Positions 8,948 through 15,886 of a DNA stretch of 64,000 nt are shown one piece after another. The stretch lies in assembly GCA_050251055.1 (NCBI GenBank), contig JBFWNL010000006.1, positions 128,001 to 192,000 on the forward strand, given 5' to 3'. Each line of letters opens with the position of its first letter. The stretch's first letter is position 1. The notes below the pieces were generated by a model that had not been told where the DNA came from, did no database searches, and was given only the letters and a program-made list of their open reading frames with translations. Made by a program: the position numbers and the translations under genes. The stretch comes from Bacteriovoracia bacterium. GTDB taxonomy: Bacteria > Bdellovibrionota > UBA1018 > JBFWNL01.

Positions 8948-10198
8948 CTATCTGTTCCGCCGGGTGATGACTTCGGTGAATACGTCCTCGACCTCATCCA
9001 GCACGGTGGGCGCCAAGAAGGGTGCGCCTTCGGAATCGCCTCGGTCTTCAAAGTTCATTGGGAATAGATAGGGGTAGCGCGCGCACGCGCGGGGCGGTTG
9101 CTGGCTGGACTCGAGCCGGCAGAGCTCCTGGGTCGGCATCACGTGGGCGACGTAGTAGAAATCGCCGGCGGGTCCCTCCACGACGGAGCCGTGCCCGACG
9201 TTTCGAGTGCCGGACATTAGCAGGTGTCGACCAGAAAGTCGGTTCTTCGCACGATCCCGAAGGCCGCGGATGCTTTTCGCGGCCACCCAAAATGTTTGGT
9301 AGTAGCTGCTGCGATAACTGTTGGCCGAAAAAATGGCGTAATAAAGATGCTTGAGGGGGTGCCAGAATATTTCGGTCCCTTCGATTACGCCATGGATGTA
9401 TCTCAGGGGCGCGTCTTCCCGGTTGTAGTTGAACCCCAACTTGAAATCCCCTAGCTCGGATGAACGAGAGAGCTCTTCGAGTAGTTTCGGATTTTTCGGT
9501 GAAACGAGTCGTTTAGGGATATTGGTGTCCTGACAAAGCAAGTGCGTGGGACGATTGGCGCGAAGCCGGGTGAGATAGGTCGCGTATCCCTGTTTGTTCA
9601 CCCGGGAATAAGCGAGCCACGGCGCGCCGGAGTGATTCCAAACCACCGAGCCGTCATAGGATCCTTCGAGTCCTTTTGATAGTTTTGGACAGGTTGCGGA
9701 TAGAGCGAAGGGCTCGCCGGTCGCCGTTCCGAATGGTCCCGTGGGGGAGTCGCTCGTGGCGACATAGAGCTGGATGTCCCGGTCATTTCCGCAACGGCCG
9801 TTTTCCACGGGGATTGCGCCGAAGTAGGCCACGTATTTTTTTAATGTTTTTGAATGGTGAATGCCGACGCTGCGTGGGCAGAGGGCTCCGGTTTTGAAGA
9901 GCAGTGGCTTACCTTTGGGGTAGCCGCGGTTAAAGCGCTCGGCCCCGCCGAAAAGATATCCATGCTTTTTCCAGCGCACGAGATCAGAACTCACGTAGAT
10001 CGGAGCGTCGTCGGTTCCCACGGTTCCGGTCATGACGTAAAGCAGTTCGGGCTGATCGACGCGCAAGACGGTGAGGTCGGCCAAGGGCTCGGGCGTGAGC
10101 GGATTCTTCGCGAGTTCGATTTGATAGGGTCCGGCCGCCAAAGACTCCGGCGCCACTGAGTTTCGGAGGATCGTGCGTGGGTCGGTATGTCCGCTCAA
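8948..10198 (-). CDS. Glycoside hydrolase family 43-like beta-propeller protein
   Basis: LADLTV, SSDLVRW, VATSDSPTGPF, YDGSV, IEGTEI, YYAIFSAN and GHGSVV motifs; the true start may be upstream at 10249. Confidence 0.7.
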   Translation of the reverse strand: MSGHTDPRTILRNSVAPESLAAGPYQIELAKNPLTPEPLADLTVLRVDQPELLYVMTGTVGTDDAPIYVSSDLVRWKKHGYLFGGAERFNRGYPKGKPLLFKTGALCPRSVGIHHSKTLKKYVAYFGAIPVENGRCGNDRDIQLYVATSDSPTGPFGTATGEPFALSATCPKLSKGLEGSYDGSVVWNHSGAPWLAYSRVNKQGYATYLTRLRANRPTHLLCQDTNIPKRLVSPKNPKLLEELSRSSELGDFKLGFNYNREDAPLRYIHGVIEGTEIFWHPLKHLYYAIFSANSYRSSYYQTFWVAAKSIRGLRDRAKNRLSGRHLLMSGTRNVGHGSVVEGPAGDFYYVAHVMPTQELCRLESSQQPPRACARYPYLFPMNFEDRGDSEGAPFLAPTVLDEVEDVFTEVITRRNR

Positions 10199-10425: not shown

Positions 10426-10878
10426 TTAGGAAGCCTGAGGAAACGCCAGCAGCACCCGGGCCCGCCCCTGCATCGGCAACGTCGTTTCCTCCGTCCGCAT
10501 GCCGAGGGTACGGGCCAGTTCGTCGAGATGACGCATCCAGGGTTTATAGGACATGGAGTTATCGCTGCAGCAAGGAACGACGGCGCAGGGGATTCGGTGT
10601 TTGGCCGCATACTCGATGATGATGCGGGTCGCGCCGTCGGCATGCATGCCCACCACTAAATCCGCCTCGCAAGGCTCCGTCAGCGTGAATTCACGCTCGG
10701 CGAACGGAACCTCCAAGTGCTTGTGACGGCGATCGAAGGTCAGGCACTGGCGGCCCCGGCGGGTCAGTGATTCGTTGAGCTTTCCCATGCCACCCGCAAC
10801 GTCGAAAATACGGCGTGCTTCGGGAAAGCGATCGACGAGTAAATCGGCGAATAAATCAAAGCGGCGGAGGTCGGCCAT
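10426..10878 (-). CDS. Small SAM-dependent methyltransferase-like protein
   Basis: DVAGGMGKL motif I, GMHADGAT and VVPCC. Confidence 0.6.
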   Translation of the reverse strand: MADLRRFDLFADLLVDRFPEARRIFDVAGGMGKLNESLTRRGRQCLTFDRRHKHLEVPFAEREFTLTEPCEADLVVGMHADGATRIIIEYAAKHRIPCAVVPCCSDNSMSYKPWMRHLDELARTLGMRTEETTLPMQGRARVLLAFPQAS

Positions 10879-10962
10879 GATTCATCGGTCTTTACCGTAA
10901 GTGGATCCCTTTCGCTAGGCCTCCTCGAGCAGAATTTAGCCCCATGAACCGAAGGAGTCGCC

Positions 10963-12285
10963 TTACTCACGCTCGCATACTCGGCATCTAGAGACAAGTT
11001 GCGCGGCCAGTTGGGCGGCTCCCCCTGCGTAGTAGCCATTTCCGGTCGAGGATCCCCCGAGCGCTGGCGCGGTGCCTTGCATTCCAGCGGCCAACCACTT
11101 TCCGTTCTCATACGCGCTGTGGGCGTAACAATGGTGCCCGTTGCATTGAGCGGTTGGGTGGAGAAGAAACTCCGGCATGCAGCTCCCGCTGCCGGCTAGG
11201 TTTGACTGAGCATCCGTCCGCTCGCTTCCGTAATAACTGTAGCCTTCCCAAAGAGATCGCCACTGGTCGCCGGGCGGACATTCGGGGGTATCGTTGGTTT
11301 GGCTGTGTACGGCAATCACACGGGACGTGTGTTTGCCGCATACGACGCAGCGACTGACCATTTGGCGGACCACGGCAGGGTCATAAATGTCCGCGTTTGG
11401 GCCGGGTTGGGTGGCTTCGGAGAAGGCTTTTGTGGAAATCCATAGGCTATAACTGCTGTCGTCGGTAGAGGAAGAGAGGCACCCCGCACCGTTGCAGCCG
11501 ATAATTCCGCCCGGATCGAAGTGGCGCAAACATGCACCCGGCTGGGAGAGGTCCTGGCCCCGGGACATCCACACAGACTGGTAGGATAGGCTTATCGCGC
11601 CGGCGAAGCTGTATCCACGCCACAGCTCTTCCCAGCCGCTTCCTTTTCCCATTTGCGTTTGGCAGTAATCGGCGGGTGGCTCGGCGGCAGATTGCGTGTG
11701 TCGAACGAGCGTTTCGTAGTTGCCCCCTCTTTGTGTCGATGCGGAATTGGACGTGGTGCAGCCTTCGATTTTCCCGTCCGCAACTCTCACATGAATGGGA
11801 ACCGAGATTCGAACTTTTGAGCTAGCCGACGCAGTAATGTTGGCATCGAGGGCACCGATTACTTCGATTTTTGCCGAATACAAATCACCCATGGCAGTTA
11901 CTCTTGAAAAACCTCCCACGGAGATGCTTTCGTATACCACCGATCCGTGGGGTCCGGGGACGAGGATCGCTTGAATTTTTTCCTGACAATCCGGCGAGTA
12001 AGAAAATATGCCATCTACTTTTACTTCGTCGATTTGGCCTTCTCGCGAGATATTTAATGACTTTCCCAGTAATGAGCAGGTGCAAGCGTTAGTCAATCGG
12101 AGGCTTTCCGACAGGTGTATTTTGTCGGAGTTTACATCGACTCGACGCGAGGACTGCTCGAGCACCCGTCTTTGCCCGAGCACGGAACTCGCGATTGCTA
12201 ACGTACCGATCGCTAGCGCGGCCATGGCGAGGATTACCTCTAGGAAAGAAAACCCCTTTACGCCGATAACACCCCTGCTATCCAT
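10963..12285 (-). CDS. Type IV prepilin-like protein with a C-terminal collagen IV NC1 (C4)-like tandem domain
   Basis: N-terminal KG|FSFLEVILAMAALAIG prepilin motif; C-terminal RHTQ, LWRGYS, GQDLSQPGACL, SRCVVC, IAVHSQT, CPPG, LWEGYS, GSCM and SRCRVC motifs. Confidence 0.8.
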   Translation of the reverse strand: MDSRGVIGVKGFSFLEVILAMAALAIGTLAIASSVLGQRRVLEQSSRRVDVNSDKIHLSESLRLTNACTCSLLGKSLNISREGQIDEVKVDGIFSYSPDCQEKIQAILVPGPHGSVVYESISVGGFSRVTAMGDLYSAKIEVIGALDANITASASSKVRISVPIHVRVADGKIEGCTTSNSASTQRGGNYETLVRHTQSAAEPPADYCQTQMGKGSGWEELWRGYSFAGAISLSYQSVWMSRGQDLSQPGACLRHFDPGGIIGCNGAGCLSSSTDDSSYSLWISTKAFSEATQPGPNADIYDPAVVRQMVSRCVVCGKHTSRVIAVHSQTNDTPECPPGDQWRSLWEGYSYYGSERTDAQSNLAGSGSCMPEFLLHPTAQCNGHHCYAHSAYENGKWLAAGMQGTAPALGGSSTGNGYYAGGAAQLAAQLVSRCRVCERE

Positions 12286-12389
12286 ATAGTCCCCCTTGCG
12301 CTAGAAAAAATTGAGCCGATAGGCAAAGAGGGGGGAAGGCTGCTAAACGAAGCAAACTTCCCCCCTTTTCGGCAGTAATTTGGGAGTGA

Positions 12390-13991
12390 TTACTGCAAAA
12401 TCATTCCCTTGGCCTGCGGATTGAATCCGGCAGGAAAAACCGTACAGGACGTATAGCGCGCGCCCGTAAGTTGAGCCTGTCCGAAGGTGGGTGCTCCGGA
12501 GAGATCGACCTTTCCCAGCTTGGCTTGCCGCAGATCCGTTCCCGCGTTGAAAATCGAACCCGGAAAGGAAACGCCCGCCGCCTGGGCGCAGTTCTGCACC
12601 TGGCCCACCGTGGCCTCGCCAAATTTCACATCCGAAAAGTTCACGGTAGCGAAATTAGCTCGATCGAGAATGGTGACTTTCTCGAACCGGCTGCCGTTTA
12701 ACTCCGTCGAGTAGAGCTGCTCGGATACCGTCATTTGGCGGACCTCTAGATTACGCATATTCACGAGGTACATGTAGGCGCCGGCGCCGCCGTCTAGAAT
12801 CTGCAAGTCGTCAATGTGCGAACCACTGAAGTTCGAGCTTTGTACGTAGCCGGATAGATAGAGCATGTCGAGATGGGACGCGCGAACATCGGCGCCGACG
12901 AGAGATCCCACATTCGAGCTGAGTTGGCTCCAGCTGTAGAGATGGAGCCCAATGTAAGCATCGGCGGACTTTTTATCTTCCGTCACCACGTCGCCCAGAC
13001 GGCTCTCTTCTTCGGCCAGTCCGCTATTCAGGGGGTCGCTCCCTTTCGGTCTAGAATCTCTTCCCATGCCGACGGCTTTCAATCCGGTCACATACGAGGC
13101 ATTGATATATATTGCCCGCTGGGCTCCCGTGGCATCCATCCGGTTTAAATTGGACGCGTCGACCTGCATTTCTGCCTGGAGGCCTCGGGCGATTAGGTCC
13201 GAAGCATTAGCTAAGTGAAATGCGATTCCGTCCTTTGCGTAGACACCTGAGAAGTCGGCGCCGTTGAGGGTCCCTCCCCAGAAATCAGCACGTCCAGAAA
13301 AATAAGCTTGATTGAATTTCGCGCCGTTGAAATTTGAGTGACCATAGATGTAGTTAACAATCTGATACCCTTGCAAGTAACTCGCACGCGCGCCGAAAGA
13401 GACGTCGCCCAAGAGGGCCTTCATTCCCGAGAGATTGGCGTTTGTGAAGTCGGAGTAGACTACGCGATTTTTATTGCCAAACCATTGTAGGCCGCTGAGG
13501 TCGGCTCCCGAGAATGTGCTGCCGTAGATGTAGGTGTCCGACAGCTTAGCGTTCTTGAGCTGGGTTGGACGACCGGCGGCGGAGTTGAAATTCGTGTTGA
13601 CCCAACGGGCGCCACTGAAGTCACCGGCCGAAACCGTCGTACCAGTGCGGTTCGCGTTCAGTGATTCACCGCAGATGCCAAGGGTCGCTGCGTTTAGCCC
13701 GATAGTATTCCCGCGTTTGCATACATTCTCGCGGATCTGGCAAGTGCACACGCCGTTCGACATGTAACCCGTCGGACAGTTCACCACCACGCCTACACCG
13801 GGCATGACCGTCGGAATTGCGGTCATCACGACCTGGTTGTCGCAGACCAGCTGGCGGGGCTCCATCGAATTCTTCGCCACTCTGATGTAGGCGAAAGATC
13901 CAGGGTCATCCGCCCCGGCGGTCGTGACGCCGCCGAAAAAAAACAGAATACACGCCCCCATCCGTCCGAAATACACGCGCTTGTCTTTCAT
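12390..13991 (-). CDS. Secreted pentapeptide-repeat protein with a Cys-rich N-terminus
   Basis: Probable start MKDKRV at 13991 (GGGGAG RBS); signal peptide; repeats such as ADLSG, ANLSG, AKFNQ, ADFSG, TDLRQ, AKLGK and AQLTG. Confidence 0.75.
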   Translation of the reverse strand: MKDKRVYFGRMGACILFFFGGVTTAGADDPGSFAYIRVAKNSMEPRQLVCDNQVVMTAIPTVMPGVGVVVNCPTGYMSNGVCTCQIRENVCKRGNTIGLNAATLGICGESLNANRTGTTVSAGDFSGARWVNTNFNSAAGRPTQLKNAKLSDTYIYGSTFSGADLSGLQWFGNKNRVVYSDFTNANLSGMKALLGDVSFGARASYLQGYQIVNYIYGHSNFNGAKFNQAYFSGRADFWGGTLNGADFSGVYAKDGIAFHLANASDLIARGLQAEMQVDASNLNRMDATGAQRAIYINASYVTGLKAVGMGRDSRPKGSDPLNSGLAEEESRLGDVVTEDKKSADAYIGLHLYSWSQLSSNVGSLVGADVRASHLDMLYLSGYVQSSNFSGSHIDDLQILDGGAGAYMYLVNMRNLEVRQMTVSEQLYSTELNGSRFEKVTILDRANFATVNFSDVKFGEATVGQVQNCAQAAGVSFPGSIFNAGTDLRQAKLGKVDLSGAPTFGQAQLTGARYTSCTVFPAGFNPQAKGMILQ

Positions 13992-14101
13992 GTTATTGCT
14001 CCCCCATTTTGTGATCGTAAATGGGAGATGCGGAGGAATGGGGCCAGGTTGCACCGCTTTTAAATTTTACCTGCCAAGGGGTGGGTCAATCACGACCCGG
14101 G

Positions 14102-15886
14102 TCAAAAAAATCCCCGAAAAAGATAGGTCATGACGTTTTGCCAGCCCGCCTCGAATTCTGCGGATTTTGAACGGGGTAGTGGCGAGTCGCCGGCGTGGTC
14201 GTATTCTCCATCTGCCCCCAATCGGTAGGAATCGCGGGCTCGCGTCATCGTCACTTCCCGCAGGGCCTCCGCCACGGCGGGAGCATTCGGGACGATCAGC
14301 AGTAGCTCTAGATTATATTCAAGGGAGCGTGGATCGAGGTTTGCCGATCCGATAATGGAGGTGGTTCGATCGATTACCATTGTTTTGGCGTGAAGCTCTG
14401 AGCGAGGGTTGCCCCCCCAAGTTTTTCCCGCGAATCCAAACACCGTCATCCCTGATCGTACCAGGCCCGGTAATTCGGACTCCATGATGTTGGCCAGGAC
14501 CAGATACTCATCGTCGAAGCTGTAACGGCTATTGGTGACTAAATTTACCGCCACGTGACGATCCCGGACCGCGGCGCGAATTTCTTCGGCGACTTCCCCG
14601 CGTAGTATCACGTAGGGATTCTCGACCCAAATCTCCTCGCGGGCATTTTTGATGTAGCTCGCCAGCGTGCCCGCGGTGACTCTGCCCCGGTAACAGTTTC
14701 CGGGTCGGTCGCTCGCGAAAATCAGCTCATCGACATCGAAGGTTCGAATCGCGGCGTGCTCGCGTTGACCTCCTATTTCGACCCATTTGCGCAATCCTTC
14801 AGAATCTCGATTTATTTGCCACCAAGGCGAGGAGGGGCGGTCGGAATTTTTCCAAAGTAATGCTTCGGGGGATTCCCAAATCCGGTCAAAGGTAGCCCGA
14901 ATCCGATGAACAATCGGCCCTTTCACCCAGACGTCCCGGTCCTGATAAACTTTTTTCGTGGTCGCGATATTGAAATATTGATCGGACAAGTTTCTTCCCC
15001 CTAGGAGTGCTTGGCGGTCGTCGACTATTATTAGCTTTCGATGGTTCCGAAGCTGTGCGGGGTTGAGGCCAGGATAAGGATTGAAAAAACGAAAACTCAA
15101 GCCGGCGTTAGCCAGCGATCCGGTCTGATTTTCATCAGGGAAAGCGGTTCCCGGGGATCGATCCAGGAGGAAACGAACTCGTACTCCGGCTTTTGCGCGT
15201 TCCACCAGTGCCTGCAAAATCAGGCTAGCGGACCTATCGCGCCCTAGCTCGAACGACTCTAGCTCGATGGAGTACTTGGCTTCTCTAATCATCCGCAAGC
15301 GTTCATAGAGGGAGGGGAGTCCTTGATCGAGGACTCGAATTTGGTGAGGCGCACGAGAAACCGAATAGTAAGGGGCTTCCGCCATGGTGTCGTACTTTTG
15401 AACGCGTAGACGAACTCGATGGCTTTTGAAAATCGCTTCTGCGTAAGGAGTAAGGTCTTTTCCGTAGTGCCGGACGTAAAGCACGATGTTTTTAGGTCGC
15501 TCCCGGCTTGCTTTCTCAGTGAGTGGATAGAGGTCTTCCGGGTGAATTTGATATCCGGATATGGGAAGTCCATCATGCGCACGCACTACAAAAGCTAGAT
15601 GGCTCAGTTGAACGGGGACGGCATAGGGTCGGGTTTTCGTTTCGGGTATCTCCAACCAAAGGGGAACGCGATATTTATATGCGGAATGATCCGATCGCTC
15701 GACCGGGCCCCATTTCATTTCTATGTCGCTAATCAACGATCGATCTGAGCTGGCGTCGCGTGCGTAAACGTCCACTTGGGCGCCTAAGTTCCAAAGGGGG
15801 TCGTCCGCGCTCGATGCCTGCGCTGAAAAAGAAAAAAAAAGTGCCCCATAGGCTATGGCGAATGCAGGTAGGCGCACTTTCCTCAC
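14102..15886 (-). CDS. Secreted phospholipase D-family protein with an N-terminal extension
   Basis: Two HKD motifs (NHRKLIIVD..GGRN and LHAKTMVID..GSANLDPRS); signal peptide. Confidence 0.85.
   Translation of the reverse strand: MRKVRLPAFAIAYGALFFSFSAQASSADDPLWNLGAQVDVYARDASSDRSLISDIEMKWGPVERSDHSAYKYRVPLWLEIPETKTRPYAVPVQLSHLAFVVRAHDGLPISGYQIHPEDLYPLTEKASRERPKNIVLYVRHYGKDLTPYAEAIFKSHRVRLRVQKYDTMAEAPYYSVSRAPHQIRVLDQGLPSLYERLRMIREAKYSIELESFELGRDRSASLILQALVERAKAGVRVRFLLDRSPGTAFPDENQTGSLANAGLSFRFFNPYPGLNPAQLRNHRKLIIVDDRQALLGGRNLSDQYFNIATTKKVYQDRDVWVKGPIVHRIRATFDRIWESPEALLWKNSDRPSSPWWQINRDSEGLRKWVEIGGQREHAAIRTFDVDELIFASDRPGNCYRGRVTAGTLASYIKNAREEIWVENPYVILRGEVAEEIRAAVRDRHVAVNLVTNSRYSFDDEYLVLANIMESELPGLVRSGMTVFGFAGKTWGGNPRSELHAKTMVIDRTTSIIGSANLDPRSLEYNLELLLIVPNAPAVAEALREVTMTRARDSYRLGADGEYDHAGDSPLPRSKSAEFEAGWQNVMTYLFRGFF

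Follow-up and report, generated by a model that had tools for sequence, protein, structure and literature searches.

The NC1-pilin gene and its product

The locus holds a gene of 440 codons plus a stop (10963..12285, minus strand) within the window, the whole stretch of 64,000 nucleotides of bacterial DNA analysed here. Its product, as read from the list of open reading frames and from Pfam and PDB searches, is a modular pilin-like protein with a C-terminal domain of the collagen IV NC1 type. The sequence AAGGGGG stands 6 nt upstream of the ATG. The neighbours are RuvB, LpxC and tRNAs, and none of the genes adjoining the NC1-pilin gene belongs to the pilus machinery. Between this gene and the upstream pentapeptide-repeat gene, a 9-bp G/C-rich inverted repeat (GGGGGGAAG ... 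CTTCCCCCC; 12330..12365, minus strand) was found by eye, which may be a terminator, giving the NC1-pilin gene its own promoter. A consensus terminator scan did not flag this repeat because its loop is 18 nt long, and a promoter scan upstream of the gene returned no match. The window corresponds to positions 128001-192000 of contig C6, in a genome estimated to be 93.5% complete and 0.71% contaminated.

Residues 1-11 form a prepilin-type leader peptide (12253..12285, minus strand; MDSRGVIGVKG/FSFLEV) that ends in Gly11, with cleavage predicted before Phe12, at the slash. The motif read from the sequence, KG/FSFLEVILAMAALAIGTLAIASSVL, places Glu16 at position +5, ahead of a hydrophobic helix. N_methyl (PF07963) scores this leader at 14.8 bits (E=0.022), below its cut-off of 21.2, and TIGR02532 at 15.7 bits, just below its cut-off of 16.3, while a profile of the PilV N-terminus matches at E=6e-4. 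The class III signal peptide named in the preliminary description is thus present as a motif followed by a hydrophobic helix, and falls short of both cut-offs. In the wider family, homologue P0004 is over the TIGR02532 cut-off at 20.3 bits, and N_methyl matches (E≤0.01) occur in 11 of the 83 aligned members.

In the AF2 model of the full-length protein (83-row alignment, mean pLDDT 82), a long α1 helix comes first and a four-stranded sheet second, and a linker precedes NC1. The hydrophobic N-terminus and α1 occupy residues 12-64 (12094..12252, minus strand; helix 14-64, block pLDDT 75-90). The globular head of the pilin module follows at residues 65-177 (11755..12093, minus strand), with a helix at 98-108 and strands at 116-128, 135-146, 157-169 and 172-177, and a linker at residues 178-189 (11719..11754, minus strand; pLDDT below 50 at 181-186) joins it to NC1. 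No pilin structure was among the matches listed by Foldseek for this model, so the assignment of a pilin fold rests on topology; a phmmer search of residues 1-190 against the PDB gave nothing relevant. With a pilin module at 12-177, a linker at 178-189 and NC1 at 190-440, the architecture fits the modular-pilin definition given in the text of PMC8179133.

The NC1 domain comprises two C4 repeats. The first, its N-subdomain, covers residues 190-318 and ends in VSRCVVC (11332..11718, minus strand; C4 match 11335-11709, E=1.2e-16). The second, its C-subdomain, covers residues 319-440 (10966..11331, minus strand; C4 match 10969-11319, E=6e-18; best Pfam stretch 323-439) and closes the protein with VSRCRVCERE. 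Across these two stretches, Pfam C4 (PF01413) matches the 440-residue protein at E=1.5e-35 and 122.2 bits, with a cut-off of 27. A phmmer search of the PDB recovers collagen IV NC1 chains (1li1, 1m3d, 5nax, 5nb0, 8tys; 2e-28 to 3e-21), and identity to animal NC1s is about 30%. In the predicted model, pLDDT of the NC1 part is mostly 83-96. At E≤0.001, Foldseek matches the predicted NC1 to 42 chains, every one of them a collagen IV NC1 (TM to target 0.75-0.84), and the best match after them appears only at E=0.35 or 7.5e-3 in two runs. The ESM Atlas, whose own model of the protein is poor (pLDDT 0.54), gave no usable feature match and two eukaryotic C4 clusters at TM of about 0.3. A modular pilin-like protein carrying a bona fide NC1 domain is, in our assessment, almost certainly real.

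These results agree with the preliminary description on the exact limits of the reading frame and on a complete C-terminal NC1, and the structural comparison that it proposed returned the collagen IV fold. Its statement that all 12 cysteines are in register was slightly generous, since all 12 are present and 11 are in MAFFT register with a mollusc α1 NC1, but the first is displaced by a few residues owing to a small insertion. The absence of a Gly-X-Y tract, also claimed there, is borne out by a longest run of 0 and by the lack of a Pfam Collagen match in the 440-residue protein, which is therefore not a collagen. The same holds for the sulfilimine cross-link, whose residues we take to be Met93 and Lys211 (Hyl211), with Arg76 as the chloride switch, in collagen IV numbering. 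In an alignment to 6mpx, the position of Met93 is Asn, and that of Lys211, by manual count from the SRC motif, is Ala; the final 45 residues contain no Lys. The animal-specific chemistry (the Met93-Hyl211 sulfilimine and the Arg76 chloride switch) thus appears to be absent from the bacterial NC1, and any trimer-trimer contact would have to work differently.

Distribution of the NC1-pilin family

The same genome encodes a second NC1-pilin paralogue on contig C13. C4-positive genomes number four of 61 in the order and eight of 401 in the phylum Bdellovibrionota, with none among 14 controls; within the phylum they span five families and are deeply diverged. A pilin-type leader is present on 11 of 11 C4 ORFs in the four genomes of the order and also on those of G317, G356 and G394. 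The architecture noted in the preliminary description, a pilin-type N-terminus joined to NC1, therefore extends to a family: of the eight C4-positive genomes, seven have it on every C4 ORF read, and the AF2 topology of the pilin module fits it. The eighth genome, G206, carries NC1 behind ordinary Sec-type signal peptides, without a pilin module. Many metagenomic proteins also carry NC1 behind Sec-type signals, indicating that the domain needs no pilus. Across homologous loci the C4 genes alone match, and no conserved neighbours were found.

Genome G024 contains tandem arrays of four and three NC1 paralogues. A search for further homologues counted 3,859 matches. Among 159 retained metagenomic matches, 33 (about 33 clusters) combine a pilin-type leader with the absence of Gly-X-Y, and ten of ten bacterial-type representatives inspected have no taxon name. 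Searching with the NC1 region, we found no homologue longer than the query. We looked for prokaryotic proteins with a single C4, which could represent the state before duplication, and found nothing convincing: 19 'other' one-repeat proteins look animal-like or like truncated fragments, and seven one-repeat pilin-type rows represent four distinct proteins (three entered twice) of the divergent G024 type, whose other repeat lies below threshold.

The bacterial pilin-type NC1 family is apparently undescribed. No bacterial or pilin-linked NC1 was found in the available portions of the literature on collagen IV NC1, PF01413/IPR001442 and pilins, including papers on collagen IV and NC1 background (PMC5395295, PMC5560861, PMC11923368, 10.1101/2021.10.08.463732, 10.1101/2023.10.18.563013). 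The domains that the text of PMC8179133 names do not include NC1, although its Dataset S1, with 264 modular-pilin architectures, may already list N_methyl with C4.

A trimeric pilus-tip model and its alternatives

Modelled as a homotrimer, the NC1-pilin reaches an ipSAE of 0.87 (runs 0.88, 0.87 and 0.87), compared with 0.00 for the best control. The runs have at least 73% of their contacts in common, and partner pLDDT is at least 75. At the interface, the C-subdomain (321-439) packs against the N-subdomain (187-270) of a neighbouring copy, including the N-terminal residues 187-192. The calibration of this score used two copies rather than three; there, proteins solved as pairs reached the mark in 20 of 30 cases and those solved as single chains in one of 23. 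Because solved NC1 trimers exist, the pass may be a product of model memory and may reflect likeness to those structures. The self-association suggested in the preliminary description is supported to this extent, at the level of a model.

We propose that the protein acts as a minor type IV pilin of modular build, with an NC1 domain that trimerises, adheres, or both, at a filament tip. The precursor would use its hydrophobic N-terminus to insert into the inner membrane and would be cleaved after Gly11 by one of the two A24 prepilin peptidases encoded in the genome (Peptidase_A24 matches at 1.3e-20 and 3.3e-14). Its α1 helix and small β-sheet head could then make it a low-abundance subunit of a type IV filament, either a pilus or a pseudopilus, with the complete disulfide-rich NC1 held outward on the 12-residue linker. 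NC1 domains pairing head-to-tail, as in collagen IV, would form a ring-shaped trimer with its three N-termini close together. By gathering three pilin modules, such a trimer would build a tip or cap comparable to the tip complexes of minor pilins, and its exposed face may mediate attachment to surfaces, prey or a further NC1 trimer. Processing, filament incorporation, in vivo trimerisation and adhesion are all steps that we infer, and we give the mechanism as a whole a probability of roughly 0.45. To our knowledge, no pilus tip has been described as a homotrimer of pilins, which counts against the proposal. Leader scores below cut-off, the lack of a pilin structure among the matches listed and the lack of linked pilus genes were also counted against it, as were the NC1 domains behind Sec-type signals and the possible model memory in the trimer score.

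Two described systems resemble parts of this model. Modular type IV pilins are described as widespread, as exemplified by Streptococcus sanguinis PilB (vWA) and PilC (lectin) (Raynaud et al. 2021, PMC8179133). In the text of that study they share with the NC1-pilin a class III signal peptide, a small pilin module and, after a short linker, a module known outside pilus biology, whereas the NC1-pilin belongs to a diderm of the Bdellovibrionia and its gene is an orphan, away from pilus genes. Variable minor-pilin tips have been described in predatory bacteria for the Myxococcus Kil/Tad pilus (Herrou et al. 2025, PMC12075869). Common to both cases, from what that source describes, are a predatory lineage, multiple paralogous pilin-like proteins with variable exposed domains and a proposed α1 bundle at the tip. 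The Myxococcus tips, however, are heteromeric, are clustered with Tad genes and bear no sequence relation to NC1, whereas the NC1 homotrimer exists as a model only.

The pilin-like N-terminus may instead serve solely as a membrane anchor and export signal. The protein would then never enter a filament, and NC1 trimers, perhaps in higher assemblies, would act as a periplasmic or surface scaffold. We regard this account as rather unlikely, if a serious contender. It would accommodate a gene without pilus-gene linkage or conserved neighbours and the Sec-type signal peptides that precede NC1 in G206 and in metagenomic proteins, and the passing of the trimer model against its controls is equally in its favour. 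The genome also encodes 41 N_methyl-like leaders at E≤0.1 (24 above cut-off), many of them on very long ORFs of 400-959 residues, suggesting that the leader is a promiscuous module in this organism; the same set of leaders also counts in favour of a pilin module in the window protein. An anchor alone is harder to reconcile with a model that contains a full pilin module of α1 and sheet beyond the leader, with the retention of the leader in every C4 ORF read from seven genomes, and with the presence of prepilin peptidases. Published modular pilins of like layout are also, according to the text of PMC8179133, filament subunits.

NC1 might also act on a minor pilin as a single-copy head, lectin-like or protein-binding, that does not oligomerise. 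The positions taken for the hexamer switch and the cross-link are not conserved, and the branch of the window protein (P0001) is very long, at 1.66-2.32 changes per column, so that its interfaces may have drifted. Known modular pilins bear monomeric binding modules of this sort (vWA and lectin, in the text of PMC8179133). A score of 0.87 against 0.00 for the controls, obtained with a collagen-IV-like ring interface, argues against such a head, with the same caveat of model memory, and we regard a monomeric adhesin as improbable.

Origin of the domain and its significance

The placement of the bacterial domains was examined in two trees. The larger comprised 109 full-length-NC1 proteins minus eight duplicates (101 rows), and the smaller the 53 rows left after 48 were dropped (redundant vertebrates, fragments and some long or redundant prokaryote-type rows). 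In the 53-row tree, 16 named or close animal NC1s form a clade (UFboot 96, SH-aLRT 90) that contains none of the pilin-type NC1s, and in the 101-row tree a branch with SH-aLRT 96 sets the pilin-type NC1s apart from the animal ones; neither tree includes named sponge, ctenophore, cnidarian or Ministeria sequences, MvCN among the latter. The position of the pilin-type NC1s outside a supported clade of named animal sequences excludes a recent transfer from a bilaterian.

To find a root from the internal C4-C4 duplication, 78 proteins were used, after 23 more redundant vertebrate or duplicate rows were dropped, giving 156 halves and 111 columns. This brought no resolution, and the halves of prokaryote type fail to separate into an N and a C group. 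The eukaryotic N-halves form a supported clade (96), and both halves are sisters in several proteins (P0031, 95; P0045, 97; P0044, 99). The preliminary description had invoked either horizontal transfer or an older origin of the fold. The bacterial NC1s are indeed not nested within the sampled animals, and the root gives no direction.

A recent acquisition from an animal, yielding a host-mimicry protein that binds or inserts into animal collagen IV networks, would account for the shared fold and the identity of about 30% to animal NC1s. We consider it very improbable, given both tree placements, the deep divergence of the family over five Bdellovibrionota families and an ordinary local GC content (0.555, within a window range of 0.51-0.63). 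The sequencing runs that contain the NC1-pilin DNA are, moreover, labelled landfill metagenome, and no RNA run is listed among them. Because of this label, and because the source lineage is Bdellovibrionia, a 'host' in the sense of an animal is unlikely.

An artefact, whether eukaryotic contamination or the chimera at the pilin/NC1 junction that the preliminary description had raised, is practically out of the question: there is no evidence for one, the gene is a single open frame deep within a long bacterial contig, the junction is spanned by contigs from two samples that show 0 differences, and the same fusion recurs within the order (11 ORFs from four genomes), elsewhere in the phylum (three more genomes) and in unrelated metagenomic clusters.

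A more far-reaching scenario, which we rate as unlikely, is that NC1, the defining assembly module of collagen IV and of animal basement membranes, is a bacterial invention. It would have started out in predatory bacteria and their relatives, capping pilin-like and secreted proteins as a disulfide-rich trimerising domain; a unicellular forebear of animals that fed on bacteria would have taken it up by horizontal transfer and later fused it to collagen repeats. If so, the bacterial family would serve as a present-day model for NC1 as it was before collagen, and tandem arrays of three to four paralogues, as in G024, could give selective heterotrimers like the α chains of collagen IV. NC1 is known outside animals from MvCN, a collagen-IV-like protein of Ministeria vibrans (Grau-Bove et al. 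2017, PMC5560861), whose N-terminal domain is described as resembling uncharacterised bacterial proteins (10.1101/2021.10.08.463732). Compared by these descriptions only, MvCN differs from the NC1-pilin in being eukaryotic and in having collagen repeats.

The likeness to collagen IV extends to two tandem C-terminal C4 repeats, 12 cysteines, the level of identity, a predicted fold at TM of about 0.8 and a predicted head-to-tail ring trimer. The differences are a pilin module where collagen IV has Gly-X-Y, non-conserved residues at the positions taken for Met93, Lys211 and Arg76, and a place outside the animal clade. A two-repeat, 12-cysteine NC1 without collagen shows that the fold, and probably the trimer geometry, is independent of the triple helix, and the family offers a tractable system for studying the function of NC1 alone. 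It also reopens the question of where the animal domain came from, as the direction of transfer of a basement-membrane component can now be tested. For predatory bacteria, in which prey recognition is attributed to variable pilus tips, NC1 is a striking new module in the repertoire of modular pilins.

The window gene and its NC1 domain

P0001, the 440-aa window protein, is encoded on the minus strand at 10963..12285, where the ORF listing and translation agree with the coordinates, leader and C-terminal NC1 position of the preliminary description. Pfam matches C4 (PF01413, by Pfam's own name the 'C-terminal tandem repeated domain in type 4 procollagen') over two stretches at E=1.5e-35 (122 bits; cut-off 27), as that description anticipated, whereas the N_methyl profile it also named matches at E=0.022 with a score short of the Pfam cut-off. 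Across all PDB chains searched with phmmer, the significant matches are collagen IV NC1 entries only, comprising single-chain NC1s (1m3d, 1li1, 8tys, 5naz, 5nb0 and 5nb1; 2e-28 to 3e-21) and engineered three-NC1 fusions (1e-81 to 6e-67). The suggested fold comparison agrees: Foldseek searches of the PDB with both P0001 models gave 42 matches at E<=0.001, all collagen IV NC1 chains with TM values of 0.75-0.84 relative to the target, followed by a sharp drop. The domain contains 12 cysteines, once thought to be all in register with animal NC1s; MAFFT aligns 11 of them, the first being shifted by a short insertion. By every test run, the NC1 of P0001 is a C4/NC1 family member. P0001 is not a collagen, and the motif classifier detects no Gly-X-Y tract, in line with the earlier reading. 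Overall, we are about 95% confident that P0001 is real, modular and pilin-like and that its NC1 domain is genuine.

The animal-specific chemistry differs. The positions that we take to be Met93, Arg76 and Asp78 of collagen IV NC1 align with Asn, Thr and Ser in P0001 (6mpx alignment), while what is presumably Lys211, counted by hand from the SRC motif, is Ala, and the tail contains no Lys. Because of these differences, a peroxidasin-type cross-link and a chloride switch, as in animals, are not expected in P0001; Asn and Ala at the assumed Met93 and Lys211 positions match the earlier impression that the sulfilimine residues are not conserved.

A bacterial family of pilin-NC1 proteins

The search for bacterial homologues proposed in the preliminary description identified C4 matches in 4 of 61 genomes of the window's order, which lies within Bdellovibrionia, in 8 of 401 genomes of the phylum (five family codes) and in none of 14 control genomes. 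Every C4 ORF in the eight positive genomes was inspected. In seven of them (the window genome G000, G024, G037, G042, G317, G356 and G394), all C4 ORFs open with a leader of the G↓F/L/M-S/T-L-x-E type and a hydrophobic helix and end in two C4 repeats. G000 carries two pilin-NC1 ORFs, the second being a contig-13 paralogue with 30% identity to P0001, a ...KTGG↓FSLLETIV... leader and C4 repeats at 1.2e-29 and 2.5e-25. G024 has seven, in tandem arrays of four (locus L013, contig 77, 7986-14784) and three (L014, contig 7, 6982-12168); these paralogues are 520-620 aa long, with cysteine-rich middle regions larger than in P0001. Such arrays invite the idea of heterotrimers, as with collagen IV alpha chains. 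G356 has two, one clipped at the locus end, which lie convergent and tail-to-tail within 2.5 kb on contig 14 (L020, about 52.1-54.6 kb). The eighth genome, G206, holds three tandem NC1 genes without a pilin module (L021, contig 20, 698-3362), two of them encoding about 270 aa in which an ordinary Sec-type signal peptide runs straight into NC1; thus the phylum also uses NC1 on its own, as a secreted or periplasmic domain.

When a profile built from 12 bacterial members was run against 1.84 billion representative proteins, 3,859 matched at E<=1e-3, of which 570 reached 1e-10 or better and 164 reached 1e-30 or better. A simple motif classifier assigned 33 of 159 proteins to a pilin-type leader without collagen repeats, 54 to at least six Gly-X-Y repeats, none to both and 72 to neither, a class in which several are truncated pilin starts or carry NC1 behind a signal peptide or anchor. 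Pfam detects C4 in all 83 aligned members, Collagen in 23 of them and N_methyl in 11. P0010, P0034, P0047, P0065, P0066 and P0131 display a second prokaryote-like architecture, in which the N-terminus is basic, a single hydrophobic segment is present and the motif '(M/F)GHSxxE' is conserved shortly before NC1. A search of the collected set for proteins with one repeat gave no convincing single-C4 prokaryotic case. P0001 is very probably a member of a bacterial family separate from the animal NC1s; the original observation is confirmed and, owing to this wider family, more general.

The surroundings of the gene are bacterial. The window covers positions 128001-192000 of contig 6 in a 3.77 Mb, 21-contig genome (estimated 93.5% complete, 0.71% contaminated). 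GC around the gene is unremarkable, and its neighbours include RuvB, LpxC and two tRNAs. Immediately upstream lies the gene for a pentapeptide-repeat protein of 554 aa (12390-14054), which has a hydrophobic segment at its N-terminus; this gene is followed by a 9-bp G/C-rich hairpin (12330-12365) and preceded by a PLD-family protein (14102-15886); downstream are a 150-aa protein without family match (10426-10878) and a GH43-like protein (8948-10198), all four genes on the minus strand. Two samples of the same study, the first possibly the source DNA and hence not independent, yielded contigs that span 10700-12600 and 10700-12508 with zero differences and so cross the boundary between pilin module and NC1 near nt 11718. 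An artefact, including the chimera at this junction considered earlier, is rejected given the bacterial neighbours and the bridged junction, the strongest argument being recurrence in other genomes.

Relationship to animal NC1 domains

The preliminary description proposed horizontal transfer or an older origin. Among the named animal NC1s in our trees, those of vertebrates are alpha1/2/4/6-type chains from fish, bird and lizard; the others come from two molluscs, amphioxus and an ostracod. In the larger tree (101 rows, 223 columns; IQ-TREE quick, LG+C20 PMSF), a single branch (SH-aLRT 96) parts 51 rows, containing all 43 collagen-linked or named animal sequences and 8 unclassified ones, from 50, containing all 25 pilin-type sequences and 25 without collagen repeats. 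In the careful 53-row tree, 16 named or close animal sequences form the starred clade (UFboot 96 / SH-aLRT 90) and a wider collagen-linked group splits off at 91/76, with no pilin-type sequence inside either. The P0001 branch is long in both trees (1.66-2.32), its nearest sequence being 36-37% identical. Because pilin-type NC1s fall outside the animal clade in both, these sequence trees exclude that bacteria acquired NC1 recently from a bilaterian animal; an ancient transfer, in either direction, is compatible with them.

Rooting via the internal C4-C4 duplication gave no root. Eukaryotic N-halves form a clade (96), while prokaryote-type halves intermix, often pairing within one protein. Median within-protein half identity is 38.7% in eukaryotes (28.6-43.1), 42.7% in pilin-type (28.8-66.4) and 45.3% in signal/anchor-type proteins (up to 97%); the P0001 halves are 30.5% identical. 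The intermixing and high identity point to concerted evolution or repeated duplication of prokaryotic C4 repeats. In the metagenomic proteins P0044 and P0045 the two repeats share 97% and 96% identity, compared with 29-43% for animal NC1s, which indicates that internal duplication or gene conversion took place very recently.

Putative pilin module, modelled assembly and novelty

AlphaFold2 with 12 sequences modelled well the NC1 part alone; with an 83-row alignment, mean pLDDT reached 82 over the whole protein. The latter model contains a helix (residues 14-64), a short helix (98-108), four strands in type IV pilin topology (116-177), a low-confidence linker (181-186) and NC1 (190-440). The TIGR02532 score is borderline (15.7 against a cut-off of 16.3 bits), and a PilV N-terminus matches at E=6e-4. 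Because the Foldseek PDB matches listed include no pilin, and sequence searches against the PDB did not recognise this module, the putative pilin assignment draws on the leader motif, borderline HMM scores and model topology. G000 encodes two A24 prepilin peptidases and 41 N_methyl-like leaders at E<=0.1 (24 above the Pfam cut-off), many on ORFs of 400-959 aa, for example C2:443789 (959 aa), C7:169871 (758 aa) and C6:216587 (733 aa). Large domains grafted onto pilin leaders are therefore common in this organism, and its set of modular pilin-like proteins is apparently large. Entry of P0001 into a type IV filament is slightly favoured.

Three copies of residues 186-440, folded together alongside controls, scored 0.87 (runs 0.88, 0.87 and 0.87) against 0.00 for the best control, with at least 73% of contacts in common and partner pLDDT of at least 75; this mark was reached by 20 of 30 solved pairs and 1 of 23 solved single chains in a two-copy calibration with other alignments. 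In the model, the C-subdomain of each copy packs against the N-subdomain of its neighbour, at an interface that takes in N-terminal residues 187-192, and the copies adopt the ring arrangement known from trimers of collagen IV NC1. Since NC1 trimers are already solved, this result denotes likeness rather than proof, and we consider it reasonably probable from the model that the NC1 of P0001 trimerises. In such a trimer, three linkers would exit the ring together and bundle three pilin modules, much as the triple helix leaves NC1 in collagen IV. The full proposed mechanism, a pilin-borne NC1 trimer at a filament tip, is tentative, at slightly under even odds.

Predatory bacteria are described, in the available text of PMC12075869, as having interchangeable minor-pilin tips with variable exposed domains; that of PMC8179133 does not name NC1 among the modules of modular pilins. 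The accessible portions of the collagen IV literature searched place NC1 outside animals in the filasterean Ministeria only (10.1101/2021.10.08.463732, PMC5560861, 10.1101/2023.10.18.563013), and no description of a bacterial or pilin-linked NC1 was found in the literature searched. Precomputed Pfam labels already tag P0004, a homologue of P0001, as N_methyl + C4. Bacterial pilin-NC1 proteins are thus visible in databases, and what is missing, as far as literature searches reach, is any description of them. P0001 represents a putative modular pilin bearing a module hitherto regarded as holozoan-specific.
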